64,000 nucleotides of DNA from Candidatus Poribacteria bacterium (lineage in GTDB: Bacteria; Poribacteria; WGA-4E; WGA-3G), in NCBI GenBank assembly GCA_965214095.1, contig OZ243938.1:937511-1001510 (forward strand). The letters are read 5' to 3'. The position numbers were made by a program, and so were the translations under genes. Shown here in pieces: positions 2,654-60,969 of this stretch. Within the stretch, counting starts at the first letter, position 1; every line of letters begins with the position of its first letter. The notes beneath the pieces were generated by a model. It saw only the letters and a program-made list of their open reading frames with translations, was not told the origin of the DNA and did no database searches.

Positions 2654-2839
2654 TCTCCTATCTTTTTTCACAGAAAGTGATCTATAGTAGATTTTGAAAT
2701 TACTTGAACACTCTACACCGGCTAGGTTAGGAAACCTCGCCTACCGTCGGATGAAAGTGTAAATATAATTTTATACTTCACCATATAAGTTGTAGAAGAG
2801 ATTTGTTCTTAAATAATTTGGTCTTATGAGATTCTGAAA

Positions 2840-3337
2840 ATGGAGCAAAAAATGACTCGCTTATGTTCAATTAGGATGTATATTGTATGTTTGTGTTGTT
2901 TTATGTGTTTCGGTATTGCATACGGACAAGATGCTTTTATTGATAGTGGAGGTGCAACAATCAGAGGTCAAGTCCTTGACGCATCTCCTGAACGGAAACC
3001 GATAGAAGGTGTTACCGTGAAAATAGTGTATTCTGCAGATGGTCAGGAATATACCGTCACAACTGATAAAGATGGTAATTACAAAAAAACCGGGTTACCT
3101 GCAGGTCGATATATTATCAGTGTATCTAAGGATGGTTACGGAGACAGAATGGGCAAGTCAAAGGTGCTTGCTGCAGGCGGTGAAATCTATGACCAAATCA
3201 AGATGCTAAAAAAAGAAAACATAATTACATTTGTTCAAAGACAACCTCTTGTATGGTTACTTGTTGCTGGTGTTGCCATTGTAATTATTGTCGCTCTTGT
3301 GATTTTCTTCATAGATTTACGGAAACCGCGTTATTGA
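2840..3337 (+). CDS. Paralog of the preceding small exported CarboxypepD_reg-like protein. The true start may be an internal Met.
   Basis: Same domain string (GVTVKIVYSADGQEYTVTTDKDGNYKKTGLPAGRYIISVSKDGYGD) and a C-terminal TM helix. Separated from its paralog by a REP-containing mini-MITE. Confidence 0.55.
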   Translation: MEQKMTRLCSIRMYIVCLCCFMCFGIAYGQDAFIDSGGATIRGQVLDASPERKPIEGVTVKIVYSADGQEYTVTTDKDGNYKKTGLPAGRYIISVSKDGYGDRMGKSKVLAAGGEIYDQIKMLKKENIITFVQRQPLVWLLVAGVAIVIIVALVIFFIDLRKPRY

Positions 3338-3346
3338 GGAAGGTAA

Positions 3347-4438
3347 ATGGCACATGTCATTCTGAACGATGTAACTAAAATATACAACAATGATATTCAT
3401 GCTGTAGATAACGCAGACTTTCAAATCCCAGATGAGTCGTTTACTGTGCTTGTTGGACCTTCGGGATGTGGCAAGTCCACAATCTTACGGATGATTGCAG
3501 GACTGGAAGAGATTACTGAAGGTGACATCTATATTGACGATGAACGCATTAACGACGTGCCTCCGAAGGATAGGGACATCGCAATGGTATTTCAAAACTA
3601 TGCACTCTATCCACACATGACGGTGTATAAGAATATGGCGTTTGGATTAAAACTGCGGAAATATGAGAAAAAGGAGATTGACACACGCGTCAACGAAGCA
3701 GCAAACATCCTCAGTATTTCGCATCTGTTGAATCGAAAACCGAAGCACCTTTCCGGCGGTGAACGTCAACGTGTAGCAGTCGGCAGAGCAATCGTTCGGC
3801 AACCGAAGGTATTCCTATTTGATGAACCTTTGAGCAACCTTGATGCAAAACTTCGCGTCCAAATGCGGATGGAAATCAGCCGTCTGCATGATCGACTCAA
3901 GGCGACTATAATCTATGTCACGCACGATCAGGTTGAGGCGATGACGATGGGAGATCAGATCGTTGTTCTCAATGAAGGGAAAATCCAACAGATCGCAGAA
4001 CCGGGCACGCTCTACCACAAACCCACTAATCAATTTGTCGGTGGTTTCATCGGCACACCACCAATGAACTTTATTGATGCACAGATTGAGAGAAATAACG
4101 GCACACCAACATTGAAGTTTGAAGACTTCTCGTTGAAACTGAATACTGAATTGCAATCAATTCTCAGTGAAATATCGGGGAACTCTGTGACGCTCGGTAT
4201 CCGTCCTGAAGATATTTATGTCGGAGAAAACGAAGTTAATCAAGTTATCTCACATGTGGAACTTGTTGAACCGCTTGGAAACCATGCCCTTCTGTATCTA
4301 CGGACAGAGAAGAATACCTTTGTTATCCAATCAAATCTGGAAGATTTACCACAACACAACTCGCCTTTGACGGTGAGTTTTGACACTGAAAAAGCACACC
4401 TATTCCACACAGAGACAGGCGAATCGTTGACAGCATGA
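3347..4438 (+). CDS. ABC transporter ATP-binding protein, MalK/MsmX/UgpC family (sugar import ATPase)
   Basis: Walker A GPSGCGKST, signature LSGGERQRVAVGRA, Walker B FLFDEPLSNLD, and a C-terminal MalK-like regulatory/TOBE domain. No permease or binding-protein gene adjacent. Confidence 0.85.
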   Translation: MAHVILNDVTKIYNNDIHAVDNADFQIPDESFTVLVGPSGCGKSTILRMIAGLEEITEGDIYIDDERINDVPPKDRDIAMVFQNYALYPHMTVYKNMAFGLKLRKYEKKEIDTRVNEAANILSISHLLNRKPKHLSGGERQRVAVGRAIVRQPKVFLFDEPLSNLDAKLRVQMRMEISRLHDRLKATIIYVTHDQVEAMTMGDQIVVLNEGKIQQIAEPGTLYHKPTNQFVGGFIGTPPMNFIDAQIERNNGTPTLKFEDFSLKLNTELQSILSEISGNSVTLGIRPEDIYVGENEVNQVISHVELVEPLGNHALLYLRTEKNTFVIQSNLEDLPQHNSPLTVSFDTEKAHLFHTETGESLTA

Positions 4439-4919
4439 TATAGTGAAATGTGAAAATACGGGCACACTCCACGGTAGATGCGGTTTCCTAACTGTATCTA
4501 TGAGACTGAACAAACACCAGTGGACTGTCTATTCTTATGTTGTAGGTCGGGTAGAGAGACGACACCCGACTTTATTGATGATAAATGGCTGCATGTCGGG
4601 TTTCGTGCCTCTACCCGACCTACAATTTTAGCGTAGACGCTCCACCAGTTCGGTTAGGAAACCGAACCTACCTTAGTGTAAATAATTATACCGAATTTAT
4701 GAGGCTCAACAAAAACCAGTTCGGTTAGGAAACCGAACCTACCTTAGTGTGTAAATAATTATACCGTATCTATGAGGCTCAACAAAAACCAGTTCGGTTA
4801 GGAAACCGAACCTACCGTGTGTAAATAATTATACCGTATCTATGAGACTGAACAGACACCAGTTCGGTTAGGAAACCGAACCTACCGTTGTGTGTAAATA
4901 ATTATGATTTTTACTATAA
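4438..4919. mobile_element. Expanded copy of a TIR-bounded MITE (TIR about TTATAGTGAAA) carrying REP hairpins. It contains a nested palindromic mini-element (4541..4624) and a 4x tandem array of an approx 70-bp unit.
   Basis: Left end TATAGTGAAATG abuts the ABC ATPase stop. Right end TTTTTACTATAA at 4919. The interior matches the intact copy at 36507..36646, except for an insertion flanked by a CACCAG direct repeat and the tandem amplification. Confidence 0.6.
4646..4900. repeat. Tandem array of four approx 70-bp units, each a REP hairpin plus a conserved linker
   Basis: Units start near 4646, 4716, 4789 and 4860 with AGTTCGGTTAGGAAACCGAACCTACC followed by a near-identical GTGTGTAAATAATTATACCGTATCTATGAG linker. 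Confidence 0.7.
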
Positions 4920-4944
4920 TGTCATGTGGTATATAGTAAATCCT

Positions 4945-5967
4945 TTAGAGTAGATCTTGAATCTGCTGCCATGTCTCATCATCAATAGGTATGCCTTCCT
5001 GTTCACGTTTGCGTTGTTCATTCCAACCGCGTTCACCCGGCATCAAAATCTCATCAACTCCAGCAGCGCGCTTTGCAGATTTGATATAGTTGATAAAACG
5101 TTCTATCTCTGCACTAAACGCAGGAAACTCTCGGAAACTCGCAACATTCATTACATGCACAAATAACCCATTGCCAACACGTGCATCATCGCCACGACTG
5201 GAACCTGCACCGGTCAATGCACCGGCAAGTATATCCACAATCACACTCAATCCAAAACCTTTGTGTGCCGCAATCCCACCGAATGGTAATATGGCAGCAG
5301 GTGTTGTTTCGTAGAAATTGTTTGGGTTTGTCGTTGACTCACCATCTGAGTTGATAAGCCATCCTTCTGGTAGTGCTTCATTTCGATGTTGTTTCACACG
5401 GATCTTACCCGATGCAACAACACTGGTGGACATATCCAATACAATCGGGTTTTTGCCTTCAATAGGCACTGCACATGCAATCGGATTTGTGGAGAGTCTC
5501 CCTTCAACACCACCGTGCGGTGCAACACATGTGCCACCACCGTGGTCGTTCACCATCAGCAGTGCAATCATCTTAGCATCTGTAGCAAGACAAGCATAGC
5601 CACCTAACCTACCAACCTCATTACATCGTGACACTGCAACTGAACTCACATCCGTTTGCTTTGCTTTCTGAATTGCTATTTCGACTGCACGCGTTGCAAT
5701 GACAGGTCCGAACCCCCAATTGCCGTCCAACACTGCTATGGATGCTGATTCATGAACTGTATCAGTCGGTGCGTTGGGTTGGATTAGTCCTGCTTCTATC
5801 TCACGCACATATTTTGGGAGATGGATCACACCGTGTGAATCGTGACCGACAAGATTCGCATCTATCATAGAATGGGTAACCACTTTTGCTTCGTCTGGAG
5901 GGATATTGTATTTTTGGAATACGTTTAGACATAAGGTAGTGAGTTCTTTGGTAGAAACAATTGGCAT
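4945..5967 (-). CDS. Ldh_2 family oxidoreductase (malate/L-lactate/sulfolactate dehydrogenase type 2)
   Basis: Full-length similarity pattern to the Ldh_2 fold, with a conserved HGG...G motif region (GHDSHGV, DHGGG). Confidence 0.7.
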   Translation of the reverse strand: MPIVSTKELTTLCLNVFQKYNIPPDEAKVVTHSMIDANLVGHDSHGVIHLPKYVREIEAGLIQPNAPTDTVHESASIAVLDGNWGFGPVIATRAVEIAIQKAKQTDVSSVAVSRCNEVGRLGGYACLATDAKMIALLMVNDHGGGTCVAPHGGVEGRLSTNPIACAVPIEGKNPIVLDMSTSVVASGKIRVKQHRNEALPEGWLINSDGESTTNPNNFYETTPAAILPFGGIAAHKGFGLSVIVDILAGALTGAGSSRGDDARVGNGLFVHVMNVASFREFPAFSAEIERFINYIKSAKRAAGVDEILMPGERGWNEQRKREQEGIPIDDETWQQIQDLL

Positions 5968-5974
5968 TGTGGGA

Positions 5975-6802
5975 TTATATGTCTTCTGTCCGATTAAGGA
6001 TTTCTGCTATCCGTTTCGCGAAACGATACGCACTGTTGTCCTCTGGAGCATATCCTATCACCTTGCGCGCATTGGTAATGCTCCAGAACTTATGGGAGTT
6101 GTCGCTGATACCGTAGAATATCTGGAATGGGATTCCGTTCTCGTCCTCAATGTTCTCTGTTTCAATACTCTTGACAAAGAGTTGAACCTGATCACGGACA
6201 CTCAAGTATGCACCAAGTGCGCGGTGCATTTTATGATAATTGTCCGCTGTGATGTCATTCAAATCGGTTTCCCGCGGCGCACCGATACGGATTTGCACAT
6301 TCTGCAGTTTCTTGTTCTTCCTAAAGCCAGTGGCAAAAACAAAACCGAGATGTTCATACGCTTCTTTTGCCCATCCATAAAAGTTATCTGACAAGGGACG
6401 CATCTCAGGTGTTACAAAATCCCATTTTCCTGACCAGATAAGTTTTTCATAATAGTCTGCTGCGTGGTTAGAACTACACACCACAACGCGCCGCACATCC
6501 GTTTCCCAACTGGTATGGTATATGTTATATGCCATCTGTATGTTGTTGAGTTCGTTCTCAAACCCACCGCCTTGAAATGCACAGTGCACAACAGCGTCTA
6601 CACCTTCAAAATATCGTTTATATAACTCTCGGTCAGGGTTGCTAACATCAACGATGTGAACACCATCCATCTCTTCTCCCTGCCGATTTGTGTTTCGGAC
6701 ATCAAGTAGAACAAGATCGTATCGTTCGCGAAATGCTGGCAGCATCCGTCCTGCAATATAACCTGCTGCACCTGTGATTAAGACTTTTCTGCGGTTTGGC
6801 AT
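5975..6802 (-). CDS. NAD-dependent epimerase/dehydratase family protein (extended SDR)
   Basis: N-terminal Rossmann motif VLITGAAGYIAG. Confidence 0.7.
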   Translation of the reverse strand: MPNRRKVLITGAAGYIAGRMLPAFRERYDLVLLDVRNTNRQGEEMDGVHIVDVSNPDRELYKRYFEGVDAVVHCAFQGGGFENELNNIQMAYNIYHTSWETDVRRVVVCSSNHAADYYEKLIWSGKWDFVTPEMRPLSDNFYGWAKEAYEHLGFVFATGFRKNKKLQNVQIRIGAPRETDLNDITADNYHKMHRALGAYLSVRDQVQLFVKSIETENIEDENGIPFQIFYGISDNSHKFWSITNARKVIGYAPEDNSAYRFAKRIAEILNRTEDI

Positions 6803-6920
6803 TGTACTTCCTTGACATTATAGTGAAATGTAAACATACGTGCACACTCCTCGGAAGATGCGGTTTCCTAACTGCATCTATGAGACTGAACAAACACCGG
6901 TTCGGTTAGGAAACCGAACC

Positions 6921-8406
6921 ATAGGCGTCAATTTAGTGATTTTTTGCTGCATTTTCAAGGTGTTCTAATGTTGTGTCTCTATTAGCACGTCTCTCAATGT
7001 AGCACCCATTTTGGAAAGCGTGTTTTATTTCATCAAAAGTTTGCCGAAAAGACATTATAGACTTGCGGAAACCTATTGCAAGTGTGCGTGCGAAGGTGCT
7101 AATAAGTTCTGCTGTTTTTGTTAGACTATGTTTTAGACATCGCCAACCGACCCTTAACATGATCCAGTGCCGCATAATTGCGACGATGAGTTTTGCATAT
7201 AACTCACATAAGATTCTATATGGCTTGTCGCTACGGGAGGTATCAACTTTTCCAATGCTTTTGAAGCACTTGAACATCAACTCAACCTGCCATCGGATGC
7301 GTGCGACAGCACAAATCTGTTCAGCAGTCAGATGGTCTACTTTTATATTAGTAATGTAGATATTCCATCTTGCGAGCTGAAGTCGTTTGGGTGAAGGTTT
7401 CGTATACTTCCGCTTTGCACGATGTTTTATCTCCTTAATACGCTGTTGGGTTTCTGTTTCTGAAAGTCTTTGAACAACTAATCGTGCTTTGAGACGCTTG
7501 TTTTTACCTATAAAGATTTGTTTGTCCTTGAAGTTATTAGAACCCTTCTTGAGCCATTTTAGCAAGCAAAAAGGGGCACCTGTTTCATCATAGAGAAAAC
7601 ACTGGACTTTGTAGCGTGATATCCAAAAGACGTTTGCATCGGAAAGTCTTTTGAAGGTATCAAGTGAATAATAGCCGAGGTCTGCGAGGCGCAAACTGCC
7701 GGCGGGTAGCATGTCAATCTGCTTTTCAATAGCACTATCAGCGGTGATACCATTGGTCAGTTCAAAGTGTTCAAAAGTGCCTGTGGCACTATCAAAACGC
7801 AGGTGGAGTTTCACGGCAGCTGTGTTCGGTTTATTCTTTTTGCTTCCACCTTCCCAAGTTTCGTGGAGCACATCAGGGAGTGTAATCCAAGAACTATCTT
7901 GTAAATAGACACCAGTGAACTTTTCAAGGAGCGGAAGCGTTTGCGGGTCGGCAGAAATAACCTTGGACGCAGTAGCATCAAGGATAACTTTCAGGGTCTC
8001 TGCTGCTTCAGATGTAAATCGTTGTTCAATGGCTTGTCGTGAGATTGAAATCCCCAGCACACCAGCGGTTTGCGCAAGTTGTGTATAGGTGGCATCTGGG
8101 TTTTCTAACCAAGTCCAAATGAGTATTTGAGCAAAACGACTACCGTTGAGTTTACAACTTCTTTTGACAAAACCTGTATTGAGAGCTGCATCATTGGCTA
8201 TAGTTGTAAGAATATGTTGCATTTCTTTGGGAACTTGTGATAATGTATTCATTAGGAAACACCTCTTTGTAGACCATAATAAATCTATATCTACATTATA
8301 TATGAGGTGTTTTCATTTTTACAGAAGTTTTATTTCATAATTTATACTTCCTCTGATTAAAAGTTGACACTTATCGGTCTTGGTGCATCCTTAAATTGAC
8401 GCCTAT
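6921..8406 (-). mobile_element. IS4-family insertion sequence (approx 1486 bp) with 15-bp terminal inverted repeats ATAGGCGTCAATTTA
   Basis: ATAGGCGTCAATTTAG at 6921 and its reverse complement TTAAATTGACGCCTAT ending at 8406. A single transposase ORF inside. Flanked on both sides by a direct copy of GGTTCGGTTAGGAAACCGAACC. Confidence 0.75.
6933..8252 (-). CDS. IS4-family DDE transposase
   Basis: C-terminal R-x3-E-x6-K signature (RIRWQVELMFKCFKS), typical of IS4/IS10/IS50-type transposases. 439 aa. Confidence 0.75.
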   Translation of the reverse strand: MNTLSQVPKEMQHILTTIANDAALNTGFVKRSCKLNGSRFAQILIWTWLENPDATYTQLAQTAGVLGISISRQAIEQRFTSEAAETLKVILDATASKVISADPQTLPLLEKFTGVYLQDSSWITLPDVLHETWEGGSKKNKPNTAAVKLHLRFDSATGTFEHFELTNGITADSAIEKQIDMLPAGSLRLADLGYYSLDTFKRLSDANVFWISRYKVQCFLYDETGAPFCLLKWLKKGSNNFKDKQIFIGKNKRLKARLVVQRLSETETQQRIKEIKHRAKRKYTKPSPKRLQLARWNIYITNIKVDHLTAEQICAVARIRWQVELMFKCFKSIGKVDTSRSDKPYRILCELYAKLIVAIMRHWIMLRVGWRCLKHSLTKTAELISTFARTLAIGFRKSIMSFRQTFDEIKHAFQNGCYIERRANRDTTLEHLENAAKNH

Positions 8407-8433
8407 GGTTCGGTTAGGAAACCGAACCTACCG
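8407..8433. repeat. REP-like element (hairpin GGTTCGGTT-AGGA-AACCGAACC plus TACCG; GTAG signature on the opposite strand)
   Basis: Perfect 9-bp stem and 4-nt loop. One of at least 25 copies in the window. Confidence 0.7.
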
Positions 8434-8492
8434 TAGTGTGTAAATAATTATAGTTTTTACTATAATGTATTACTGTAATAAGCATGGACAGA

Positions 8493-10172
8493 TTACGGAA
8501 TTTGCAACTTATCTTTACAGTGTCGCGCAAGGGTTTTCATCTCACCAATAACCTGTGTTTCAGTTTGCATGAGTTGATTATAGAATGGTGGAACAGGTTC
8601 TCTTCCAAACAACTTATCAAAGAAACTACGTTGTGCCTCTATCGGCATCTCAAACCGAGATGTTTCTGCTCTTGAAGGATCTACGCCCAAATACGCAATT
8701 GTAAAATAGTGCGATCCATCATCTTTTATAATCTCTCCATTCTGAATACTGCCGGTAATCTTCCGTCCATAACTCACGGAATAGACTCTACCGGTCTTTT
8801 GACTCAGGACAGTATACCCACCCTCGTCAATCGATTCGTTCCAGCATTCCTCAAATCCATTCTGTGGAAGACGTTGGCGTAGTTCTTCTGCTGATCGCAC
8901 GACAAAACTATTCTGATGTGGTGCCTTGGTGATAACGAATTCCTCGTTCTGCTCCTTAATTGGGTGTTGACCTGAAAGTAGGTCAACACCATCAAGCGTC
9001 CAGACGACACCTGCTTGAATACCTTTTGCTAAGTTTTGGTGTGTCTCAACAAACTCGCCGTTGAGTGGATGAAGTTGGTAATCTCCATTTCCATTGAAAA
9101 CCGCTCTCAATTTTCTCCGATGATCTATCACGGAGAACCGTTTATCAGGAAGCGGTATCTCTAACTGCATTGTATATCCTATATCCAAATCTGTTGTGAG
9201 ATTTAGTTGTGATTTACGGAGGTTGGCAAGCCGTGTCAATGCAGTTTGACTTTTGGATAAAACGCGTCCGATTAGATATTTACTACGAAGATTAGGTATT
9301 TCAGTAGCAAGACACTCAAGTGTTGCTTCATCCAACTTCTCCAACATCACTTTGTGTTCCCAACGTGTGCCGCGTTCGTGTACAAGGATTTGAAACTGTT
9401 GTTTATTACCACTGGGACGAATATACCCAAGTGCAGTCCACGGGTCAAAGGTAGCACGATAATAGCCACTTGTTTCTGCATCACCGCCTGCTAAAACGCA
9501 ATCCCGTCGTTCGTATCGGGAATAGAGACCGAATTGGAATTCATAAGATTCGTAGTTTTCCAAAGCTTTACGCAGATCATGTGCAAACTCACTTCCTCGT
9601 GAAAACTTACTAAATATTTGTTCTGTCTGATGCGGCTGATTGAGAGCATCAAGGAAGGAACCGATTGGAATGCCTGCCTCCTCAACACCTTCGTCTTCAC
9701 TTTTCCCGAACACCTTTGTTTTCGTTTTGAAGGGAGGATTGCGAAGTGTTACATCACGCTGTGAAACAAGTTGTAGAGCGGGATCGTCAGACATACCTGC
9801 AAGTGTCGGTGCATCTCCAAGGATTTCAGCTAACTTTCTATCATCAATCTTATCCATTAACACCGTACCACGTTTGAGTTCAGCGAAATGGATAATATCA
9901 TTAAGGCTATATTGTAGCGGGGCACTAGATGATAGGTTGTCGTAATTTGAACGATGGAAACGGATACGTGGCTTTATACGAAAGACAGGTGTGAGACCGT
10001 AATCTTTCAGCAACGCATACAAGGTCACCGTATACGACTCCTCATGCACTTTCTGTGCGAGAATACCGCCATCAGAGGTTAAATTGTTGACGATTAACTG
10101 ATCTTGTACAGGACTGCTATCATTGCCAAAAATCATCATCCTATGTTCTTCTCTATTGTCATCAACTAACAT
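8493..10172 (-). CDS. Hypothetical protein (559 aa); no recognisable family
   Basis: Long ORF with a plausible start and no domain recognised by eye. Lies between the IS/MITE complex and the ROK kinase gene. Confidence 0.45.
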   Translation of the reverse strand: MLVDDNREEHRMMIFGNDSSPVQDQLIVNNLTSDGGILAQKVHEESYTVTLYALLKDYGLTPVFRIKPRIRFHRSNYDNLSSSAPLQYSLNDIIHFAELKRGTVLMDKIDDRKLAEILGDAPTLAGMSDDPALQLVSQRDVTLRNPPFKTKTKVFGKSEDEGVEEAGIPIGSFLDALNQPHQTEQIFSKFSRGSEFAHDLRKALENYESYEFQFGLYSRYERRDCVLAGGDAETSGYYRATFDPWTALGYIRPSGNKQQFQILVHERGTRWEHKVMLEKLDEATLECLATEIPNLRSKYLIGRVLSKSQTALTRLANLRKSQLNLTTDLDIGYTMQLEIPLPDKRFSVIDHRRKLRAVFNGNGDYQLHPLNGEFVETHQNLAKGIQAGVVWTLDGVDLLSGQHPIKEQNEEFVITKAPHQNSFVVRSAEELRQRLPQNGFEECWNESIDEGGYTVLSQKTGRVYSVSYGRKITGSIQNGEIIKDDGSHYFTIAYLGVDPSRAETSRFEMPIEAQRSFFDKLFGREPVPPFYNQLMQTETQVIGEMKTLARHCKDKLQIP

Positions 10173-10310
10173 GAACTTTTCCTCCCCTGATGTATACCAA
10201 ATTGGCTTCCAGTGTTTTCTGACATGATTGCATGCGAGGTGCGGTTACCTTGTGCTACAATCTCGGATAATTAGGTATAGATTATTTCTCTCAGTGCCAA
10301 ATTGATAGAT

Positions 10311-11285
10311 TTATTCCGAATTCAGTCTTTGTCTTGCCAGTGCGGCTGCACCAAGCACACCTGCATCATCCCCCAGTTCCGCTCTCACAATCTGAACACC
10401 TTTTAACGTATCGGGTAAAGCATACTTCTTAGCGGCTTTACGTATATTTTTTATGAAATTCTTGTCAAGTGCTTCAACAACACCCCCACCAAGCACAATC
10501 ATATCTGGATTTAGGAAATTTACAATAGAACCGATACCGACACCGAGATATTTTGTCGCCTTTTTAAAGACATTCTGTGTCAATTTGTCCTTACTCCGTA
10601 GTGCTTTGGCTAATGTGCCGCTGCGAATTTGCTGAAGGTCACCGTCAGTAAGCTTAGTAATGACACTCTTTTTTCCTTTTTTCATTATAGCATTTCTTAA
10701 TTGTTTTGTCATCGCCGTACGGCTTGCAAGTGCTTCCAAACATCCACGATTCCCACAACCACACTTCGGTCCACCTTCTTGGACAATAATATGTCCAATT
10801 TCACCGGCAGTTTTGCTAGCTCCGTGGAATAGTTCACCGTTTAGAATGATTCCACCACCGATTCCTGTGCCAACAAAGATCCCAACCAAATTCTGTACAC
10901 CGCGTCCTGCGCCGTAAGTATGTTCTCCGAGTGTGCCGACGTTAACATCGTTGTCTACAAAAGTTGGAATTCCGATGCGAGCTTCTAATTCTGTCTTTAA
11001 AGGGACATCTTTCCAACCAAGATTCGGAGCGAAGATTACAACACCTGTTTCCGGATCAAGCGGCCCCGGTGCACCGATACCAATAGCACGAATCGTATCT
11101 TCAGATACTTCCGATTTTTGGAAAGCCTCCTTAATACAGTCCGAAATTCGATCAATAACAATAGATGTATCGTCTTTTGCTTGTGTCGGCATTTTTGCTG
11201 TGGCTAAGATATTACCTGATGCATTCACAACTGCGGAGAGGATTTTGGTGCCACCCATATCCACCCCGATAACATTAGCGTCCAT
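10311..11285 (-). CDS. ROK-family glucokinase
   Basis: IGVDMGGTK ATP-binding motif, ROK signature, and the zinc motif CGCGNRGCLE. Confidence 0.8.
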   Translation of the reverse strand: MDANVIGVDMGGTKILSAVVNASGNILATAKMPTQAKDDTSIVIDRISDCIKEAFQKSEVSEDTIRAIGIGAPGPLDPETGVVIFAPNLGWKDVPLKTELEARIGIPTFVDNDVNVGTLGEHTYGAGRGVQNLVGIFVGTGIGGGIILNGELFHGASKTAGEIGHIIVQEGGPKCGCGNRGCLEALASRTAMTKQLRNAIMKKGKKSVITKLTDGDLQQIRSGTLAKALRSKDKLTQNVFKKATKYLGVGIGSIVNFLNPDMIVLGGGVVEALDKNFIKNIRKAAKKYALPDTLKGVQIVRAELGDDAGVLGAAALARQRLNSE

Positions 11286-11331
11286 TATAATTTCCTTTGT
11301 CTAATAGGTAATTTAAGATCTTGTAAAATTT

Positions 11332-11814
11332 CTATGTCGCAATAATCTCAAGGAGTTTTTGCTTAAAGTCCATTGCTGATAAATGCATCCATTTATTTAG
11401 AAATGTATCATAGTCAGCAATACGATTGTTATGTGTGCGCGAGCAGAGGGTATCAACCCCAAGTAATTCATCAGACCCAAGTAATTCATCAGAATTGTAA
11501 CTTGTCTTATGTTCTGTGAGGACACCCAAAATAACATCGTTGTCGTGAATATCACCAAGTATATCCTGCAGATCGACAATAGTGTCAAGAAAATCAGAAA
11601 ACCGGCTGTCGTAATTGACGGCAAAGAATTCCATTGTGTACCGCAGTCTTTTCACAGAAATTCGCATGTTATGAAGTTCATCTCGTCGCTCTGGGTCATT
11701 AATATACTTTTCCCAACTGTACACCTCTTCAACTCTCTGTGGTAAAACGGTACGCGCGTTCTGACGAAAACTTTGCTTCGGATTGAGACCTATTATTTTC
11801 TGTGGCTTTGCCAT
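11332..11814 (-). CDS. CHAD-domain protein (second of a translationally coupled pair)
   Basis: LHNMRISVKRLRYTMEFF matches the CHAD His/Arg helix motif. GGAGG lies 7 nt before the ATG, inside the 3' end of the upstream gene. Confidence 0.55.
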   Translation of the reverse strand: MAKPQKIIGLNPKQSFRQNARTVLPQRVEEVYSWEKYINDPERRDELHNMRISVKRLRYTMEFFAVNYDSRFSDFLDTIVDLQDILGDIHDNDVILGVLTEHKTSYNSDELLGSDELLGVDTLCSRTHNNRIADYDTFLNKWMHLSAMDFKQKLLEIIAT

Positions 11815-11815
11815 G

Positions 11816-12301
11816 TTACCCCTCCGATTGAAAGAATGTCAGAAATTTAGTTTCAAAGTCATTTACTTCAAGTTCAGCAAACAATTCCAACATCGGTTTT
11901 CGTGCAATTTCCCGTTTCTGTTGTAAGTTTTCAATCAGTCCATGGATATCACTTTGTTCCTCGGCAGGTAGCGTTTGCAACTCCGATTGAAAATGTGTAA
12001 TGAGAACATCAAGGTCACGGACTACCCCCATCGTTCGCGTTATAGTGCGTATCTGTTTGTAGTATCGCTTGAAAGGTTCTCTTTGAAAGCAATCCGAGAA
12101 GTTATCCATTGCAGCTCGTATACGACGAGAGGCAACCCTCATATCGTGGACGAATTCAATATTTGTGCCATCTATTGCCCCATTTTTGTGAGACATCATC
12201 TCTCGGAAATAGCCGACAATAATTAGTCGTGCACAGGTTTCCATATTCTCATTGGGTGCGACACCTTTGATTTCTATTGCAGCAGACATTTTAACACCCA
12301 T
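11816..12301 (-). CDS. CHAD-domain protein (first of the pair)
   Basis: VHDMRVASRRIRAAMDNF CHAD motif. The stop codon is separated by 1 nt from the downstream start. Confidence 0.55.
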   Translation of the reverse strand: MGVKMSAAIEIKGVAPNENMETCARLIIVGYFREMMSHKNGAIDGTNIEFVHDMRVASRRIRAAMDNFSDCFQREPFKRYYKQIRTITRTMGVVRDLDVLITHFQSELQTLPAEEQSDIHGLIENLQQKREIARKPMLELFAELEVNDFETKFLTFFQSEG

Positions 12302-12339
12302 TATATCATACCACTTTTATAAATGATATTCCCTTTTTT

Positions 12340-12545
12340 ATTGATAGGGTTATTTAGTTTTCGGTTTTTCTGCTATATTTTTCACATTTCAATATAACAC
12401 CTGTAGGTCGGGTAGAGGCACGAAACCCGACAAGCATTGAACGTGTCGGGTTTCGCTTTGCTCTACCCGACCTACGATATAAACTCTTAGTAACGTTCAT
12501 CAATTGAAAATTATTAAAACTAAATAACCCTGTTTTATTGAAATG
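12340..12545. mobile_element. MITE with TIR AGGGTTATTTAGTTTT, carrying a central approx 65-bp perfect palindrome (TGTAGGTCGGGTAGAG...CTCTACCCGACCTAC)
   Basis: Left TIR at 12346, right TIR (reverse complement) at 12517..12535. Homologous copy at 61190..61380. A solo palindrome copy is nested at 4541..4624. Confidence 0.55.
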
Positions 12546-18316: not shown

Positions 18317-18545
18317 ATACCATTTCTATAAATGTTTATCCCATTAACATTTGTTAAGAATGTCTTAAACGATGGCACAAACTGGATGAAGATTAAGAAA
18401 TAAATAGGATAATTTCCTTGAGAAGTCCGGTGCGGTTAGGAAACCGCACCTACCGGGTTTGGGAAAATGAGAATTACCCGTTTAATAAATTAATCTTCAT
18501 GCAGTTTGTGCTACAAAATGCGGTGTTTTCAATTAGAAATGGTAT
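18317..18545. mobile_element. Second copy of the ATACCATTTCTA-TIR MITE. It carries a nested 115-bp MITE (18386..18500, TIR ATGAAGATTAA) inserted exactly at the centre of its internal palindrome.
   Basis: Outer flanks match 16210..16342. Inner element ATGAAGATTAAG...CTTAATCTTCAT contains a REP hairpin GGTGCGGTTAGGAAACCGCACC. A second inner-type copy is at 58166..58280. Confidence 0.65.
18429..18455. repeat. REP-like element, stem variant GGTGCGGTT/AACCGCACC
   Basis: Compensatory double change relative to the GGTTCGGTT/AACCGAACC variant. Same AGGA loop and TACCG tail. Confidence 0.7.
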
Positions 18546-24285: not shown

Positions 24286-24294
24286 GATAAGTAT

Positions 24295-24410
24295 TCCGGC
24301 AGCGACCTACTTTCCCGCGGGGTTGCCCCCGAAGTATCATCAGCGCTGAAGGGCTTAACTACCGTGTTCGGAATGGGAACGGGTGTGTCCCCTTCGCTGT
24401 AACCACCGGA
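24295..24410 (-). rRNA. rrf: 5S ribosomal RNA
   Basis: The reverse complement reads CCGGTGGTTACAGCGAAGGGGACACACCCGTTCCCATTCCGAACACGGTAGTTAAGCCC...GCTGCCGG with the canonical CCGAACACGG and AGTTAAGC motifs. Confidence 0.85.
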
Positions 24411-24471
24411 AAGGTGTATAATAATATTTGACAAATGAATAGTGTGTGAGGGGTCGGTAGAGAAAAATAAG

Positions 24472-27469
<2,998 letters not shown>

Positions 27470-27567
27470 GGTGATATTTTTCTTTCTACCGATTTACCCT
27501 CTACTATTCATTTTGTCAAAGAACGCCGCCTATATTCTCAGAAATGCGTTGCATTTCATTTAGGCGA

Positions 27568-27640
27568 TGGAGATGAGCGGAGTTGAACCGCTGACCTACT
27601 GCGTGCAAAGCAGTTGCTCTCCCAGCTGAGCTACACCCCC
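27568..27640 (-). tRNA. tRNA-Ala (anticodon UGC), no encoded CCA
   Basis: GGGGGTGTAGCTCAGCTGGGAGAGCAACTGCTTTGCACGCAGTAGGTCAGCGGTTCAACTCCGCTCATCTCCA. Cloverleaf folds with a G3:U70 wobble, the Ala identity element. Confidence 0.8.
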
Positions 27641-28289: not shown

Positions 28290-28334
28290 CTAACTTTCTT
28301 TTGCAACTCACAGGAAAGAAAATATAGTAGATCT

Positions 28335-28395
28335 TGAAGTTACTTGAACACTCTGCATCGGCGAGGTTAGGAAACCTCGCCTACCGTGGGTCGAA
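28335..28395. repeat. Mini-MITE (TIR about TTGAACACT) containing REP hairpin GGCGAGGTT-AGGA-AACCTCGCC. Second copy at 2697..2760.
   Basis: TTGAACACTCTGCATC...GGCGAGGTTAGGAAACCTCGCCTACCG...GAAAGTGTCAA. Confidence 0.55.
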
Positions 28396-28463
28396 AGTGT
28401 CAACTTAAATTTATAATTCACTATAACTAACTGACTTTTTCATGAAAGGAAACTTTTCACCGT

Positions 28464-30194: not shown

Positions 30195-30365
30195 ATAAGC
30201 GTCAATTTAGCGTCCTTCCAAGTACCGGTAGGTTCGGTTTCCTAACCGAACCGGCTTTGTGCCAAATACCTTCATAGAGGTTCTCGCTTAGGATCCGGTT
30301 CGGTTAGGAAACCGAACCTACCGTCACGGGGAATGAAGCGTAATTCTCCTTAAATTGACGCCTAT
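30195..30365. mobile_element. MITE derived from the IS4-family IS (same TIR, ATAAGCGTCAATTTA / TAAATTGACGCCTAT). It carries an inverted REP doublet (REPIN-like) and is flanked by an approx 22-bp direct repeat.
   Basis: The TIRs match the IS at 6921..8406. Internal CCGGTAGGTTCGGTTTCCTAACCGAACC ... GGTTCGGTTAGGAAACCGAACCTACCG. Flanks GGTATATTATGCGGGATATCC / GGTATATTATGCGTGACATCC. Confidence 0.65.
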
Positions 30366-31580: not shown

Positions 31581-31682
31581 TTGCTTTCTCCACAGCTTTA
31601 TAGTAGAATCCAAAATATGTGGACACTGTGCGATGGGGTCTCACACAACACCTTTGTAATAGGTGCTGGGTAACCCAGCCCT

Positions 31683-32041
31683 ATATGCGTCAATGTATCA
31701 TCCTTCCAAGTACCGGTAGGTTCGGTTTCCTAACCGAACCGGTTTTGTGCCAAATACCTTCATAGAGGTTCTCGCACAGGTTCCGTGCGGTTAGGAAACC
31801 GCACCTACCGGCCTGGGGAAAACGCCTAATTTACACTAAATTGACGCTCATGGTGCTGGGTAATCCTGCTCCATATACGTCAATGTATCATCCTTCCAAG
31901 TACCGGTAGGTTCGGTTTCCTAACCGAACCGGTTTTGTGCCAAATACCTTCATAGAGGTTCTCGCACAGGTTCCGTGCGGTTAGGAAACCGCACCTACCG
32001 GCCTGGGGAAAACGCCTAATTTACACTAAATTGACGCCTAT
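31683..32041. mobile_element. Two tandem copies of the IS4-derived MITE (approx 170 bp each), each with a REP doublet, separated and flanked by an approx 20-bp direct repeat. They lie between cydA and cydB.
   Basis: Units 31683..31851 and 31873..32041 are about 97% identical. Direct repeat GGTGCTGGGTAACCCAGCCC occurs three times. Confidence 0.65.
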
Positions 32042-32096
32042 GGTACTGGGTAACCCCGCCCCTACGTTTCCTGCCGCGTGTGCAAATAATTTATGA

Positions 32097-36506: not shown

Positions 36507-36646
36507 TTATAGTGAAATGTAAAAATATATGCACACTCTACGGTAGATGCGGTTTCCAAACCGCATCTATGAGACTGAACAAACACCGGTTCGGTTAGGA
36601 AACCGAACCTACCGTCGTGTGTAAATAATTATGGTTTTTACTATAA
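36507..36646. mobile_element. Intact copy of the MITE with TIR TTATAGTGAAA, carrying an inverted REP doublet. Inserted between trmD and rplS.
   Basis: TTATAGTGAAATGTAAAAATAT...CGGTAGATGCGGTTTCCAAACCGCATC...GGTTCGGTTAGGAAACCGAACCTACCG...GGTTTTTACTATAA. Confidence 0.65.
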
Positions 36647-36664
36647 GCGACTTGTGGCATTGAC

Positions 36665-38168: not shown

Positions 38169-38236
38169 AAATAACCTCCTGGTTGATTGTATAGCTGAAT
38201 TTACCAGATATAATCTAATTGTAATTGCGTATGCCG

Positions 38237-39625
38237 TTATTTTTTTCTTCTACGTTTTCGTGGTTTTCTTGATTTACGTTGTGTTCGAGGGAAAGCACCT
38301 AAATTTCCACCCATCTTTGGTATCGCCATTGCTCCCTGTTGGTTAAACATGTTATTCATCATACGTAACTGTGAAACCAATTGATTAATCTGATTAACCG
38401 ATGTGCCACTGCCTTTGGATATACGCATTTTCCGGCTACGATCTAATTGAACGGTATTGCTCCGTTCAGCAGGTGTCATTGACTGAATGACCGCTTTAAT
38501 ATGTTTAATATGGTCTTCATCAGGCTGCATGTCTTTGATGGGTAATTGGTTTTTAAACGGGACAAGATCAAGTATTTGGTCAAGCGGTCCCATATTCTTA
38601 ATTTGTTCAAGCTGCGTAAGTAAATCGTTGAAATCTAAACCTTTTTTCTCTGTTAATTTCCGTTCTAATTCTCTTGCCTGATCTTCACTGAAGACTTCTT
38701 CAGCTTTTTCCATCAAGGTCTGGAAATCACCTTGACCGATAATACGTGAAGCCATCCGTTCAGGATGGAATTCTTCAAGCGTATTCGCGTCAATTTTCTC
38801 CCCGACACCAATAAATTTGATGGGTTTGTCTGTAACAGAACGGATCGAGAGTGCAGCACCACCGCGTGCATCCCCATCCATCTTCGTCAAAATTACCCCA
38901 CTAATATCCAAATCCTTATTGAAGTTTTCTGCGACGTTTACTGCGTCTTGACCTGTCATCGCATCAACTACGAGCAGGATTTCTGACGGATTTACCGCAT
39001 CCTTGATTCCCTTCAGTTCATTCATCAATGTTTCATCAATGTGCAAACGACCTGCTGTATCAATAATTACACAATCGTAACCACGATTGAGTGCATCTTG
39101 CACAGCATCCTTTGCAATTTTGACAGGTGAGACATCTGTCCCCAGTGCAAAGACAGGACAATCAATCTGTTCACCAAGTACCTGAAGCTGCTTGATTGCT
39201 GCAGGACGGTAAACATCACCTGCCGCGAGCATCGGATTACGTCCATCCTTACGGAATTTGAGTGCTAACTTCGCTGCGACTGTTGTTTTACCAGCACCTT
39301 GCAATCCGGCTAACATCACAACCGTTGGTCCGCTGGAAGATATCTGAATCTTCGCAGATTCTGTTCCCATCAAAGTGGTTAATTCTTCTTGGATTATCTT
39401 CGCAATTTGGAGTTCTGGTGTGAGACTCCCCATCACCTCTTGACCGAGTGCACGTTCCTTGATGCTTTCAATAAAATCGCGTGTGACCTTGTAGTTCACA
39501 TCTGCTTCTAAGAAGGCGCGACGCACTTCTCGCAGGGAATCAGAGATATTCTTCTCTGTCATTTTTCCCTGACCTTTAATCTTTTTAAAGGTGCTTTGTA
39601 GCCGATCACTCAAACTCTCAAACAT
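38237..39625 (-). CDS. ffh: Signal recognition particle protein Ffh
   Basis: N domain, GTPase G domain ([20 protein letters not shown]), M domain, and a basic tail. Confidence 0.9.
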
Positions 39626-39887
39626 GCGTTTAAATCCTTTATCAAAGGGAAATTAATTAAAGAATTATAGCAGGTTTAATGGGTTCTGTCAAGTTTTTTT
39701 GTGGTTGAGCAGGGTGTTGGGAAGTATATCTGAATTGTGGATTTTCGCGGATTGTCCAGACTTTGTAGGTTGTAGTACTGGATATAGTCAAAGTCACTGA
39801 AAATTTGTTTTTGATTAGATGAATGCTTCTGGTTCTTTATCTAATTTGCAGCTGCTCCAACATAGAGGGTAGGTCTATCTGCGGAAA

Positions 39888-58354: not shown

Positions 58355-59392
58355 ATGCGTAAATTAAACACACTACGAACACTATTACTTATAGTGTCAA
58401 CAATAGTTGTCCTGTGTGCTTATGCACAGGCAGAACCGCGAAAAGTCATTGAAGTACCACGATGGTCAGCATATGACATCGCTATACACCCGGATGGTAA
58501 AGTGATTGCAAGTGCTTCAATAGCGGACGTTATCCACTTGATGGATATTGAATCTGGCGCAGAGATTAGAACGCTTATAGGTCATAATGAAGGCGTTGAA
58601 TCCGTTAGATATAGTCCCAAAGGCGATATCCTTGTCAGTGGCGATCAAGGTGGCTTTAACATTGTCTGGAATACCAAGACAAATGAACAAATTAAAAAGC
58701 TGGAAAGACATAGGTGGGTCATTAAGGATATCGTATTCTCACCGAATGGAAAAATCCTCGCCACAGGAGACTGGGGTTGGGATAATACACTCCGTCTTTG
58801 GAATACGGAAACATGGGAACTTCTGTATGGGAAGGTAGCTGGGAAAGTCGATGATATCTCCTTTAGTTTTGACGGATCGATCATTGCCGCCGGTGTTTTG
58901 GAGTCAGGGTTCGTGTATATCTGGGAAACGGAAACCGGAGAGTTGCTCCATACACTTGATACCAGTATGGAACATGTGCTTGCCGTGACTTTCATTGGCA
59001 CAGAACGGGAGCTGGTCTGTGGCGGTTCAGTCGGCTTACAGTTATGGGACGGTGAGACCGGTGAAAAGATCAGGGATTTCCCAAAAGATGGTATTAATAA
59101 AGAAGTTCGAGCTGTTGATATCAATCCAGATCGGCGGCTACTCGCTGTCGGTAGGGCAGATACGGATGTGCAACTCTGGGACATGAAATCTATGGAACTC
59201 ATTGAGACACTTGAGTTTCATTTTGGTAGGTCGCATACCGTTGACTTCTCATCAGATGGGTCAACGCTTGCGACTGCTGCAAATGAAACACGCATAGGTG
59301 TTTGGGATGTGGAACCTTTTAGCGAGCCCGTTTTGAGTGTCAATCCAAAAGATAAGGTTTCTGTTCTGTGGGGTGCCATCAAGAGTAGATAG
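58355..59392 (+). CDS. Exported 7-bladed WD40 protein (345 aa)
   Basis: Signal peptide. Tandem paralog of 59657..60691. Confidence 0.7.
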   Translation: MRKLNTLRTLLLIVSTIVVLCAYAQAEPRKVIEVPRWSAYDIAIHPDGKVIASASIADVIHLMDIESGAEIRTLIGHNEGVESVRYSPKGDILVSGDQGGFNIVWNTKTNEQIKKLERHRWVIKDIVFSPNGKILATGDWGWDNTLRLWNTETWELLYGKVAGKVDDISFSFDGSIIAAGVLESGFVYIWETETGELLHTLDTSMEHVLAVTFIGTERELVCGGSVGLQLWDGETGEKIRDFPKDGINKEVRAVDINPDRRLLAVGRADTDVQLWDMKSMELIETLEFHFGRSHTVDFSSDGSTLATAANETRIGVWDVEPFSEPVLSVNPKDKVSVLWGAIKSR

Positions 59393-59656
59393 AACTGTGT
59401 TTGTAGATGCGTTTTATCCTTGTTGGAGCGGTTTTCAACCACGATGGTTCAGAGATAACGGCACACGGCGTGTGCCTACTACTATGCACATCGCGCTTTC
59501 TAAGCGCGCTCCTTGTTGGAGTGGTTTCCAACCACGATTGTCAGAACCAGGATTTTCAAGAGAAGTCCTCGCTAAAATGACATTTATAATAAATCAGAAC
59601 AATAATAAAATAGACAGGGTCAATATATTATTAACCCGCTTGGATAGGAGGTATCC

Positions 59657-60691
59657 ATGCGTAAATTAAACACACTACTAACACTATTACTTATAGTGTT
59701 CACAATAGTCGTCCTGTGCACTTATGCACAGGCAGCACCACGAAAAGTCATTGTAGTGCCATTTTGGTCAGGATATGACATCAGTATTCACCCGGATGGT
59801 AAAGTGATTTCAAGTGCTTCATTACAGAAGATTATCCACTTGATAGATATTGAGACTGGCGAAGAGATTAAAGTGCTTGAAGGCCATACTGAAGGCGTTG
59901 CATCCATTGGATATGGTCCCAATGGCGATATCCTTGTCAGTGGTGATCAAGCCGGCTTTAACATTATTTGGAATACCGAGACAAATGAACAAGTTAATAA
60001 TCTTGCAAAACATACGTGGGTCATTAAAGATATTGTATTCTCACCGAATGGGAAAATCCTCGCTACAGGAGACTGGGGTTGGGATAATACACTCCGTCTC
60101 TGGAATACGGAAACCTGGGAACTTCTGTATGGGAAGGTAGCTGGGAAAGTCGATGATATCTCCTTTAGTTTTGATGGCTCGGCCATAGCCGCTGGTGTTT
60201 TGGATACGGGGTTAGTGAATATCTGGGAAACGGAAACCGGCGATTTGCTCCATACACTTGATACCGGTATGGAACATGTGCTTGCTGTGACTTTCATTGG
60301 CACAGAACGGAAGTTGGTCTGTGGCGGTTCGGTTGGCTTACAGTTATGGGACGGTGAGACCGGTGAAAAGATCAGCGATTTTCCAGAAGAAGGCATTACG
60401 GAAGTCCGGTCTGCTGATATCAATCCGGATCGGCGGCTACTCGCTGTCGGTAGGGCAGATGGAATGGTTCAACTCTGGGATATGAAATCTGTGACACTCA
60501 TTGAGACGCTTGAGTTACATTTTGGCAGGTCGCATACTGTTACTTTCTCGAGAGATGGGTTAACACTTGCGACTGCTGCAAATGAGGTACGCATAGGTGT
60601 TTGGGATGTGGAACCTTTTAGCGAGCCTGTTTTGAGTGTCAATCCAAAAGGTAAAGTTTCTGTCCTGTGGGGTGCCATCAAGAGTAGATAG
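59657..60691 (+). CDS. Exported 7-bladed WD40 protein (344 aa), about 85% identical to the preceding gene
   Basis: Co-linear paralog. The first approx 60 bp upstream are also duplicated, including the RBS. Confidence 0.7.
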   Translation: MRKLNTLLTLLLIVFTIVVLCTYAQAAPRKVIVVPFWSGYDISIHPDGKVISSASLQKIIHLIDIETGEEIKVLEGHTEGVASIGYGPNGDILVSGDQAGFNIIWNTETNEQVNNLAKHTWVIKDIVFSPNGKILATGDWGWDNTLRLWNTETWELLYGKVAGKVDDISFSFDGSAIAAGVLDTGLVNIWETETGDLLHTLDTGMEHVLAVTFIGTERKLVCGGSVGLQLWDGETGEKISDFPEEGITEVRSADINPDRRLLAVGRADGMVQLWDMKSVTLIETLELHFGRSHTVTFSRDGLTLATAANEVRIGVWDVEPFSEPVLSVNPKGKVSVLWGAIKSR

Positions 60692-60870
60692 CACAGCGTT
60701 TGCCTATTTCAGCATCTCGAATTTTCACGGATGACGCGGATATACATGGTAGTAGGCACACGCCGTGTGCCGTTCTTACATTCTCCGAGCCATCCGCGTA
60801 AATCCGAGATCAAGGTTATTTATTTTCTGTTTTTCTTGTATTTTCTTTCACATACGCTAAATCCCCTAAG

Positions 60871-60969
60871 CCGGTAGGTTCGGTTTCCTAACCGAACCGA
60901 ATTTTCGCTAAAACCTTTCATAGTCAGTTTCCTTTTAGAATCCGTGCGGTTGGGAAACCGCACCTACCG
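60871..60969. repeat. Inverted REP doublet (REPIN-like): CGGTAGGTTCGGTTTCCTAACCGAACC ... GTGCGGTTGGGAAACCGCACCTACCG
   Basis: Two REPs in opposite orientation about 45 nt apart. The outer GTAG/CTAC signatures face away from each other. Confidence 0.6.

Follow-up and report, generated by a model that had tools for sequence, protein, structure and literature searches.

We analyzed a 64-kb window (64,000 nt; positions 937,511 to 1,001,510 of contig OZ243938.1, assembly GCA_965214095.1) from the genome of a “Candidatus Poribacteria” bacterium, in which small hairpins resembling repetitive extragenic palindromes (REPs) are scattered between the genes. The 22-nt pattern GG-NNN-GGTTAGGAAACC-NNN-CC occurs 12 times in the window, compared with 0.00 matches expected from 100 dinucleotide-preserving shuffles, and its 12-nt core, GGTTAGGAAACC, has 28 matches when up to two mismatches are allowed. 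Twenty-four of these 28 show paired flanks and a TACC(G) tail and are intact REP copies, all of them located between open reading frames (ORFs); the matches at 8099, 19594, 30117, and 48689 do not show paired flanks with a tail and are attributed to chance. One more copy, the 25th, survives only as a remnant at about 58082-58098 (+; GGAGGTT/TCGCCTACCG) from which the loop and the upper 3′ stem are gone. The strand given for a copy is the one that reads hairpin and then TACCG, and the GTAG-headed REP strand is the opposite one.

The original prediction of at least 25 copies was essentially right, with 24 intact copies and one remnant, and the four stem classes that it named (TTC/GAA, TGC/GCA, CGA/TCG, and AGC/GCT) are present in the window with perfect pairing. 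We found a fifth window class, GATGC...GCATC, at 4477, 6857, and 36546, in which the outer pair is compensated too. The inverted doublets that it described are also present, with spacers of 44 nt (30231/30297 and 60877/60943), 43 nt (31719/31784 and 31909/31974), and 20 nt (36546/36588), and every tailed window copy bears the proposed GTAG signature, reading 5′-CGGTAGG-stem on the opposite strand, with GTAG sharing the first stem G. The density of one copy per 2.7 kb (24 in 64 kb) is correct for the window, but calling it unusually high was an overstatement. This value is inside the range given for REP-rich genomes (PMC8266576), and in the other Poribacteria tiles (at least 113), the excess beyond the copy by which a tile was ascertained is only about one per 10 kb.

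Copies in the window are built into several kinds of composite unit. A-type units are ∼105 nt long and center on the REP copies at 2720-2746 (+; class CTA/TCG, one mismatch; unit 2683-2785) and 28360-28386 (+; class CGA/TCG; unit 28323-28427); the unit at 2683-2785 is common to that at 28323-28427 and to L069, L110, and L043 (L-numbers denote stretches from other genomes compared with the window). B-type doublets and arrays are found at 4472-4920, at 6852-6920 plus 8407-8452, and at 36541-36650. The doublet that starts at 4472, with the copy at 4472-4498 (−; class GATAC/GCATC, core AGTTAGGAAACC) as its left arm, is broken by a nested palindrome of a second family, and a tandem array of four TTC/GAA copies lies at 4647-4887 (+) with a period of 70 to 73 nt (hairpins at 4647-4668, 4718-4739, 4791-4812, and 4861-4882). 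Another left arm of a B-type doublet is the copy at 6852-6878 (−; class GATGC/GCATC), and the intact inverted doublet at 36541-36614 pairs a GATGC/GCATC copy (36541-36567, −) with a TTC/GAA copy (36588-36614, +). E-type units are 115-nt palindromes with terminal inverted repeats of 11 to 20 nt and a REP at the tip, centered on the copies at 18429-18455 (+; class TGC/GCA; unit 18386-18500) and 58209-58235 (+; class AGC/GCT, tail TACTG; unit 58166-58280). Doublets with a 43- to 44-nt spacer form a further composite family, which includes an inverted doublet at 60872-60969 without insertion sequence (IS) ends that resembles the REP doublets forming hairpins known as REPINs (60872-60898, −, TTC/GAA; 60943-60969, +, TGC/GCA, loop GGGA). 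Also in the window are a degenerate copy at 57996-58022 (+; class CGA/TCG, core GGCTGGGAAACC, tail TACCA) and a copy at 54934-54960 (+; class CGA/TCG, loop GGGA) that lies between two direct copies of AATCCTGGTTCAGACAAT. This sequence has direct copies at 54906 and 54980, an inverted copy at 54759, and one more at 41891, and it represents either a further family of small repeats or a long duplication of a target site.

Copies pooled from the window and tiles, 209 in all, gave the anatomy of the family. The loop and upper stem (GGTT-AGGA-AACC) have close to the maximum information content, and the outer GG/CC and the TACC(G) tail have a high content, the signal of the tail being partly due to ascertainment; the tail is present in 83 to 91% of copies, a set that was partly selected with CCTACC, and secondary copies have it too. 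Because conservation falls to background beyond about −8 and +22, the unit measures ∼27 to 29 nt. The consensus of the REP strand is 5′-(C)GGTAGG-NNN-GGTT-TCCT-AACC-NNN-CC, with a perfect 9-bp stem and a 4-nt loop. Three mid-stem pairs are variable, and the paired classes are TGC/GCA (51 copies), TTC/GAA (34), CGA/TCG (14), CAC/GTG (5), and ATGC/GCAT (3), with TGA/TCA, CAA/TTG, and AGC/GCT being rarer. The covariation noted in the original prediction was confirmed in 148 distinct 32-nt units from the window and other genomes, in which standard pairs fill 94.5% of cells, compared with 84.5% after shuffling, and cells with double changes number 113 versus 27.9 expected, a value reached by none of 500 shuffles. 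Pairing falls to 30 to 50% when the 3′ partner is shifted by one to three columns, and at least six different compensated stem types exist. In a minority of CGA-class copies, an AGC(A/G) tail pairs with a 5′ GCT, giving a longer stem with no GTAG head. We also observed copies with inserts in other genomes. Copies at L050:1330-1400, 1530-1560, and 1720-1780, L014:6830, and L092:1260 carry a 31-nt (or longer, further nested) insert, TGCAGGTCGCATTTGGTCGAGTACGCCGCAA, within the loop, between GGTTAGGAA and AACC; in a variant seen at L050:1911 and L050:3040, the insert measures 40 nt. The copy at L016:6986-7122 has a 23-nt palindrome, CAGAATACGCGTATGGTATTCTG, within its 5′ stem.

Among neighbors within 300 nt in the window and tiles, inverted pairs are heads-outward in 15 cases versus heads-inward in 2, with discrete spacers of 20, 43 to 44, and ∼147 nt, and 40 neighbors are tandem and direct. 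Five window doublets fold as single long hairpins, including the doublet in 30212-30340 (−40.4 kcal/mol, z = −8.6) and that at 60872-60969 (−29.7 kcal/mol, z = −5.5). Heads-outward doublets that fold as long hairpins are the pattern of REPINs and of bacterial interspersed mosaic elements (BIMEs), and the predicted REPIN-like organization is supported in this respect. Single-REP composites and tandem arrays are as common as doublets, and the amplifying units are probably larger composites of 70 to 170 nt rather than the bare hairpin. Across all sources, 173 of 177 copies fall outside ORFs of at least 120 amino acids (aa), which cover 79% of the sequence. Shorter ORFs do cross the arrays: at L050:1148-2738, mechanical ORFs of 50 to 110 aa have repetitive translations resembling GTVRKPCLPG, and in L114, a called 211-aa gene (3406-4041) lies inside a hairpin array that extends from 3505 to 4137. 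REP arrays likely give spurious gene calls in Poribacteria metagenome-assembled genomes (MAGs), and the repeats and their composites fragment and confuse metagenome assemblies of this phylum, so that knowing the family helps annotation.

We identified a candidate enzyme for these hairpins in other poribacterial genomes. A tblastn search with the solved Escherichia coli TnpA-REP (PDB 4ER8) matched L050:2192-2446, in a 157-aa ORF (L050:2012-2485) for a REP-associated tyrosine transposase (RAYT). The protein matches Pfam Y1_Tnp (E = 1.7e-16) and NCBIfam NF047646, the REP-associated tyrosine transposase model (128.4 bits, cutoff 80), and scores 46.3 bits on the IS200 model, under the cutoff of 55. 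The poribacterial RAYT is only 22 to 27% identical to the E. coli enzyme, but 13 poribacterial homologues keep residues H59, H61, and Y115 of that enzyme (the HUH motif and catalytic tyrosine); they do not have the E. coli C-terminal tail and have additional N-terminal residues. A RAYT protein search yielded 91 clusters at 53 to 99% identity; only a few have a source name, and that name is Poribacteria in every case. One to four contigs carry each cluster, and L050 and L114 have a common neighborhood. Judged from its sequence and setting, this RAYT is best described as a putative domesticated HUH/Y1 enzyme in a “REPtron,” with its gene between REP copies.

We examined nine RAYT loci, L050 and eight further contexts (identities are to the L050 protein). 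The L050 gene is within arrays of exactly the window hairpin, with one copy ∼125 nt before the start codon, one over the stop codon, and many more on both sides. Hairpin arrays also lie on both sides of the RAYT gene in L114 (84%), and there are several copies on both sides in L121 (68%). Single copies flank the gene 27 nt upstream and 10 nt downstream in L115/L116 (75%) and 124 nt upstream and 10 nt downstream in L119 (79%), and L120 (72%) has copies 62 nt upstream and 48 and 173 nt downstream. Copies on both sides in L122 (63%) have the altered loops TTGC and AAAA. L117 (72%) has truncated halves on both sides, with a TnpB element abutting the upstream half and a loop variant, GGTAGGCGAGGAT-TGT-ATCCTCGCC, downstream, and in L118 (60%), other GTAG/GTGG hairpins are found in place of the REP. 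In all, eight of nine loci have a hairpin, loop variant, or truncated copy within ∼130 nt of the RAYT gene, an adjacency that is not due to chance because the background is one copy per 2.7 to 10 kb. Loop changes occur in the loci with the most divergent RAYTs, perhaps only below about 65 to 70% identity. The TnpB (OrfB_IS605/Cas12f-like) gene directly upstream of the RAYT gene in L117 is at 1711-2829, and the end of its element appears to truncate the upstream REP. We also considered one RAYT paralog per stem class; the presence of five classes in one window and of RAYT clusters on only one to four contigs argues against this.

A scan for GGTTAGGAAACCNNNCCTACC in one genome per species of bacteria and archaea found the core in at least 113 tiles, 112 of which are labeled Candidatus or uncultured Poribacteria (sponge symbionts) and come from roughly 55 assemblies; the single remaining tile among the matches listed is an unnamed MAG. 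Cyanobacterial small dispersed repeats, first suggested by a GC content of 42% and by nested small repeats, were set aside when the scan placed the family in Poribacteria; they serve here only as a parallel for nested insertions. Several REP-bearing tiles have genes in common with the window at about 77 to 91% nucleotide identity, the closest relative among the matches listed being OY282386.1 (∼90% nucleotide identity), and the window is thus poribacterial, from a species that differs from every representative in the scan.

We conclude, with a probability of about 0.82, that the hairpins are a GTAG-headed REP family of “Candidatus Poribacteria” whose RAYT (TnpA-REP) partner is encoded elsewhere in the genome. 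The testable features of a GTAG-type REP were found in the family, and those of a REPtron were found in related genomes, where the small number of contigs per RAYT cluster is only suggestive of a single-copy gene. The original prediction had proposed REPs served by a RAYT and had named as its opposite a genome with no RAYT and copies confined to MITEs (miniature inverted-repeat transposable elements). A RAYT gene is present in relatives, with a hairpin beside it in eight of nine loci, and only 6 of the 24 window copies are inside MITEs; the REP/RAYT reading therefore stands. Several observations weigh against it. We detected no RAYT or Y1 gene in the 64-kb window by tblastn with E. coli TnpA-REP and the poribacterial RAYT (a weak match to the former at 57817-57993, E = 2.4, is noise, and the latter had no window match), and the partnership rests on relatives with about 77 to 91% nucleotide identity in shared genes. 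The L118 locus has other hairpins and L117 has truncated halves only, and the gene-flanking copies in L115 and L119 have the stem-extending AGC(A/G) tail and no GTAG head. Common descent of the copies means that counts of covarying cells overstate the number of independent events. Because 87 of 176 copies have both flanks in common with other copies, much of the copy number is due to the amplification of larger units, a part of them with DDE-type ends. Finally, a search for A, B, and E composite units without the hairpin found none, and insertion of the bare hairpin is thus unsupported.

Some REP copies were multiplied by a different kind of element. An IS at 6921-8406 (−), with ends (CC)ATAGGCGTCAATTTA, sits within a B-type REP element and encodes a 439-aa transposase (6933-8252) that matches Pfam DDE_Tnp_1 (E = 1.9e-22) and the NCBIfam IS4 family (195 bits, cutoff 115). 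The intact paralog of the split element, at 36565-36632, has one stem-loop between ACACC and TACCG. Full GGTTCGGTTAGGAAACCGAACC flanks the IS as a direct repeat, once on either side, so that the whole REP stem-loop (18 to 22 bp) has been duplicated; the left copy is a TTC/GAA stem-loop without a tail (6899-6920, +), and the right copy is TTC/GAA with a TACCG tail (8407-8433, +). The length of the duplication is ambiguous between 18 and 22 bp because the targets have GG at the start and CC at the finish, and the IS itself may terminate in CC...GG. No REP hairpin is inside the IS itself (6921-8406).

IS4-type ends also bound short MITEs in many genomes, with direct duplications of ∼18 to 22 bp. 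In the window, a 171-bp MITE with IS4-type inverted ends (30195-30365, unstranded) is flanked by a ∼18- to 22-bp direct duplication, GGTATATTATGCG(G/T)GA(T/C)ATCC, and carries an inverted REP doublet of two TTC/GAA copies (30226-30252, −, and 30297-30323, +). A 169-bp MITE with IS4-type ends (31683-31851, unstranded) is inserted in a different GTAG-type palindrome, GGTGCTGGGTAACCCAGCCC, and holds a doublet of a TTC/GAA copy (31714-31740, −) and a TGC/GCA copy (31784-31810, +); its second tandem copy (31873-32041, unstranded) holds the doublet 31904-31930 (−) and 31974-32000 (+). Because these three MITEs each hold a REP doublet between IS-type ends, 6 of the 24 window copies are MITE cargo, and 16 of the 24 lie clear of every element with IS4-type ends, of its edges as well as its interior. 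Duplicated MITE targets are often this REP, and others are part of a second GTAG palindrome family (GGGTAGAGCG...AAACCC), the third hairpin, GGTGCTGGGTAACCCAGCCC-CTAC, and other GG...CC sequences, as observed in tiles that were chosen for containing REPs. The third GTAG-type hairpin, GG(T/G)G(C/T)TGGGTAACCCA(G/A)CCC-CTAC, is the target of the two tandem MITEs, around which it is present in triplicate (31662-31681, 31852-31871, and 32042-32066); it was also seen at L093:4697. IS or MITE ends of the form (CC)ATAGGCGTCAATTTA with unusually long duplications also occur in L016, L058, L059, L087, L045, and L096.

Where the IS4-family element or one of its MITEs lands on a REP stem-loop, that stem-loop is duplicated. 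We suggest, tentatively and at less than even odds, that this is a second, RAYT-independent way of multiplying REPs, in which the element and its MITEs choose stem-loops of at least three unrelated families and cut at both feet of the hairpin. Each insertion would leave an 18- to 22-bp duplication and turn one intact REP into two, which could reflect recognition of an extruded cruciform with both feet side by side. The MITEs appear to have captured REP doublets, so that REPINs may hitchhike on a cut-and-paste transposase.

These insertions raise the question of whether the hairpins are only cargo or by-products of DDE-type elements (MITEs and the IS4 family), the RAYT link being incidental. 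Six window copies are inside IS4-ended MITEs, the IS at 6921-8406 made two copies from one stem-loop, E-type units have terminal inverted repeats of 11 to 20 nt, and there is no composite unit without its REP. We nevertheless regard this origin as unlikely: 16 of 24 window copies are clear of IS4-ended elements, the hairpin is the sole common part of at least five unrelated flank families, no such hairpin is within the IS, and the hairpin flanks the RAYT gene in most genomes examined. The IS and MITEs land in unrelated palindromes too, and REPs are for this reason their targets rather than their parts. Intergenic location and an excess of convergent over divergent spacers (25 versus 12) would suit RNA elements selected copy by copy as terminators, mRNA 3′-end stabilizers, or small RNAs, as would the stability of the stem (−9.9 kcal/mol folded as single-stranded DNA, z = −6.1) and the secondary roles of this kind described for REPs of other bacteria (PMC3733652). 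However, orientation relative to co-directional neighbor genes, tested as a sign of RNA-level function, is unbiased (56 versus 52), the consensus has no T-run after the stem, and Rfam covariance models gave no relevant match on the elements at the gathering threshold or at an E value of ≤1. (One microRNA-family match at 4530-4635, E = 0.09, is a chance match of the second-family palindrome, a long hairpin.) The elements behave as DNA-level repeats and not as strand-specific RNA signals, and an RNA function, which leaves the asymmetric GTAG head and the RAYT linkage unexplained, is very unlikely to be their primary role.

It is still less probable, in our estimate, that the hairpins are the ends of an ordinary multicopy IS200/IS605 element or of a TnpB element. 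Three hairpin-selected tiles do encode a second Y1 family of IS200/IS605 type (NCBIfam, 72 bits), at L009:5634-6113 (−), L092:463-939 (+), and L050:about 7190-7366 (−), and TnpB adjoins the RAYT gene in L117. We rejected the second Y1 family as the partner, as hairpins are 240 to 370 nt off on one side only in L009 and L092 and none are near the gene in L050. By contrast, the gene that the hairpins do flank scores above the RAYT cutoff and below the IS200 cutoff (46 versus 55). TnpB is present at one of nine loci, where it appears to truncate the upstream hairpin, and solo hairpins, numbering in the thousands, vastly outnumber genes, which fits REPs and not IS ends. Immobile binding sites for a host protein (nucleoid protein, gyrase, or regulator), selected in place and not spread by an enzyme, would account for a palindromic core kept across many species, and integration host factor and gyrase are generally known to bind REPs elsewhere (PMC8266576). 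We give this idea almost no weight, given that the doublet at 36541-36614 is absent at the orthologous intergenic region of L003, from another species, that arrays and composites with near-identical flanks occur at unrelated loci, and that copies cluster around the RAYT gene.

If the hairpins are REPs with a RAYT partner, as we favor, then by analogy with E. coli, Stenotrophomonas, and Marinomonas (PMC8266576 and PMC3479197), the enzyme would bind the folded single-stranded REP strand, recognizing its GTAG head, loop, and upper stem and needing an uninterrupted stem. It would cleave at a nearby dinucleotide and rejoin strands, and this cleavage and rejoining would spread and maintain REP-containing units; the multiplying units would be inverted doublets (REPIN-like) and long palindromes with a REP at the tip. 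We infer these steps of binding, cleavage, and mobilization by homology. The hairpins do not vary in the loop, the tail, or the four pairs of the upper stem, and their three mid-stem pairs differ freely from copy to copy provided that they stay paired. This natural variation mirrors the needs of the Stenotrophomonas maltophilia enzyme, which depends on the loop positions, does not cleave when the stem is mismatched, and tolerates low-stem changes (PMC8266576). The variation resembles a mutational map of enzyme needs, and the divergence of RAYTs and loops would offer a natural series for mapping RAYT-REP specificity.

Other features of the window include an rRNA locus at 24294-27640 (−) with tRNA-Ala, 23S, and 5S genes and with no 16S or tRNA-Ile gene. 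The 16S gene is unlinked from the 23S-5S pair, since the next upstream feature is the REP at 28360, followed by protein-coding ORFs. The same separation was reportedly described by Fieseler and colleagues in 2006 for the first poribacterial fosmid. The second family of GTAG-headed long palindromes (TGTAGGTCGGGTAGAG...CTCTACCCGACCTACA) has copies at 4541-4624, 12402-12475, and 61234-61311, and a copy is nested in the B-type REP doublet at 4520-4640. Another small hairpin, AACGGCACACGGCGTGTGCCT, has three copies (41975-41995, 59457-59477, and 60754-60774). Three tandem paralogous genes of about 1,000 aa lie on the minus strand at 41997-51551 (41997-45074, 45443-48388, and 48555-51551) and contain identical blocks of ∼250 nt (42012-42263, 45458-45709, and 48570-48821) that point to a recent duplication or to gene conversion. 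In OY282386.1 (L043:2285-4103), no more than 1.8 kb separates the orthologues of the window genes at 38235-39753 and 61378-64000. The ∼21.6 kb between them in the window (39753-61378) represents a large insertion, deletion, or rearrangement and is bordered by repeats.

The poribacterial system most closely recalls Pseudomonas REPINs and group 3 REPtrons (S. maltophilia, Marinomonas, and Pseudomonas; PMC8266576). In the group 3 REPtrons, the REP is a short perfect palindrome with an 8- to 9-bp stem and a 3- to 4-nt loop preceded by GTAG and the gene lies among REP copies. In both, the loop is invariant, the stem must pair, and lower-stem changes are tolerated, as established by SELEX (systematic evolution of ligands by exponential enrichment) and mutagenesis for the S. 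maltophilia REP and seen here in natural variation. Like group 3 enzymes, the poribacterial RAYT is longer at the N terminus than the E. coli enzyme and is missing its C-terminal tail of ∼20 residues. The likeness is one of traits and not of phylogenetic placement; the phylum is different, the REP sequence is unrelated, and some poribacterial gene-flanking copies have the stem extension (AGC/GCT) in place of the GTAG head. With the REP/BIME and TnpA-REP system of E. coli (group 2; 4ER8 and PMC3479197), the family shares an extragenic palindrome headed at its 5′ side by GTAG, an arrangement in inverted pairs and tandem clusters, and an HUH/Tyr enzyme encoded between REPs in which H59, H61, and Y115 are kept, but the E. 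coli REPs are longer and have an obligatory bulge, whereas the poribacterial stems are perfect. Doublets of two inverted REPs with fixed spacers that form one long hairpin resemble the REPINs of Pseudomonas fluorescens (PMC3116915 and PMC3337134), although many poribacterial REPs occur singly, each at the apex of a longer palindrome, or in tandem direct arrays. RAYT clusters on few contigs and a core kept across the lineage are in line with the long-persistence model of REPIN-RAYT systems (bioRxiv 10.1101/2021.07.10.451892), and dozens of species have kept a single REP core, which fits long-lived, vertically inherited systems.

The family also fits the GTAG-tagged REP superfamily as defined by Di Nocera et al. 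(2013, PMC3733652): its palindrome bears a GTAG tag that is unpaired, the two REPs of a dimer are oppositely oriented, copies lie between unidirectional and convergent genes, and GTAG repeats flank the RAYT genes. That survey reported GTAG REP families in the Planctomycetes-Verrucomicrobia-Chlamydiae (PVC) superphylum and makes no mention of Poribacteria, and the literature that we searched contained no link of Poribacteria with REPs or RAYTs and no report of this sequence family. Our results add an uncultivated phylum of sponge symbionts to the lineages known to have a REP-RAYT system. The IS4-family element, found repeatedly at REPs, is like the REP-targeting ISs (Tobes and Pareja 2006, PMC1525189), which include ISRm22 of the IS4 family. 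Those known ISs break the REP in two and produce direct repeats of 0, 3, or 6 bp (PMC1525189); unlike them, the poribacterial IS duplicates the whole stem-loop of 18 to 22 bp and leaves both copies intact, and this hairpin-duplicating element is the part of the system that may be mechanistically new.

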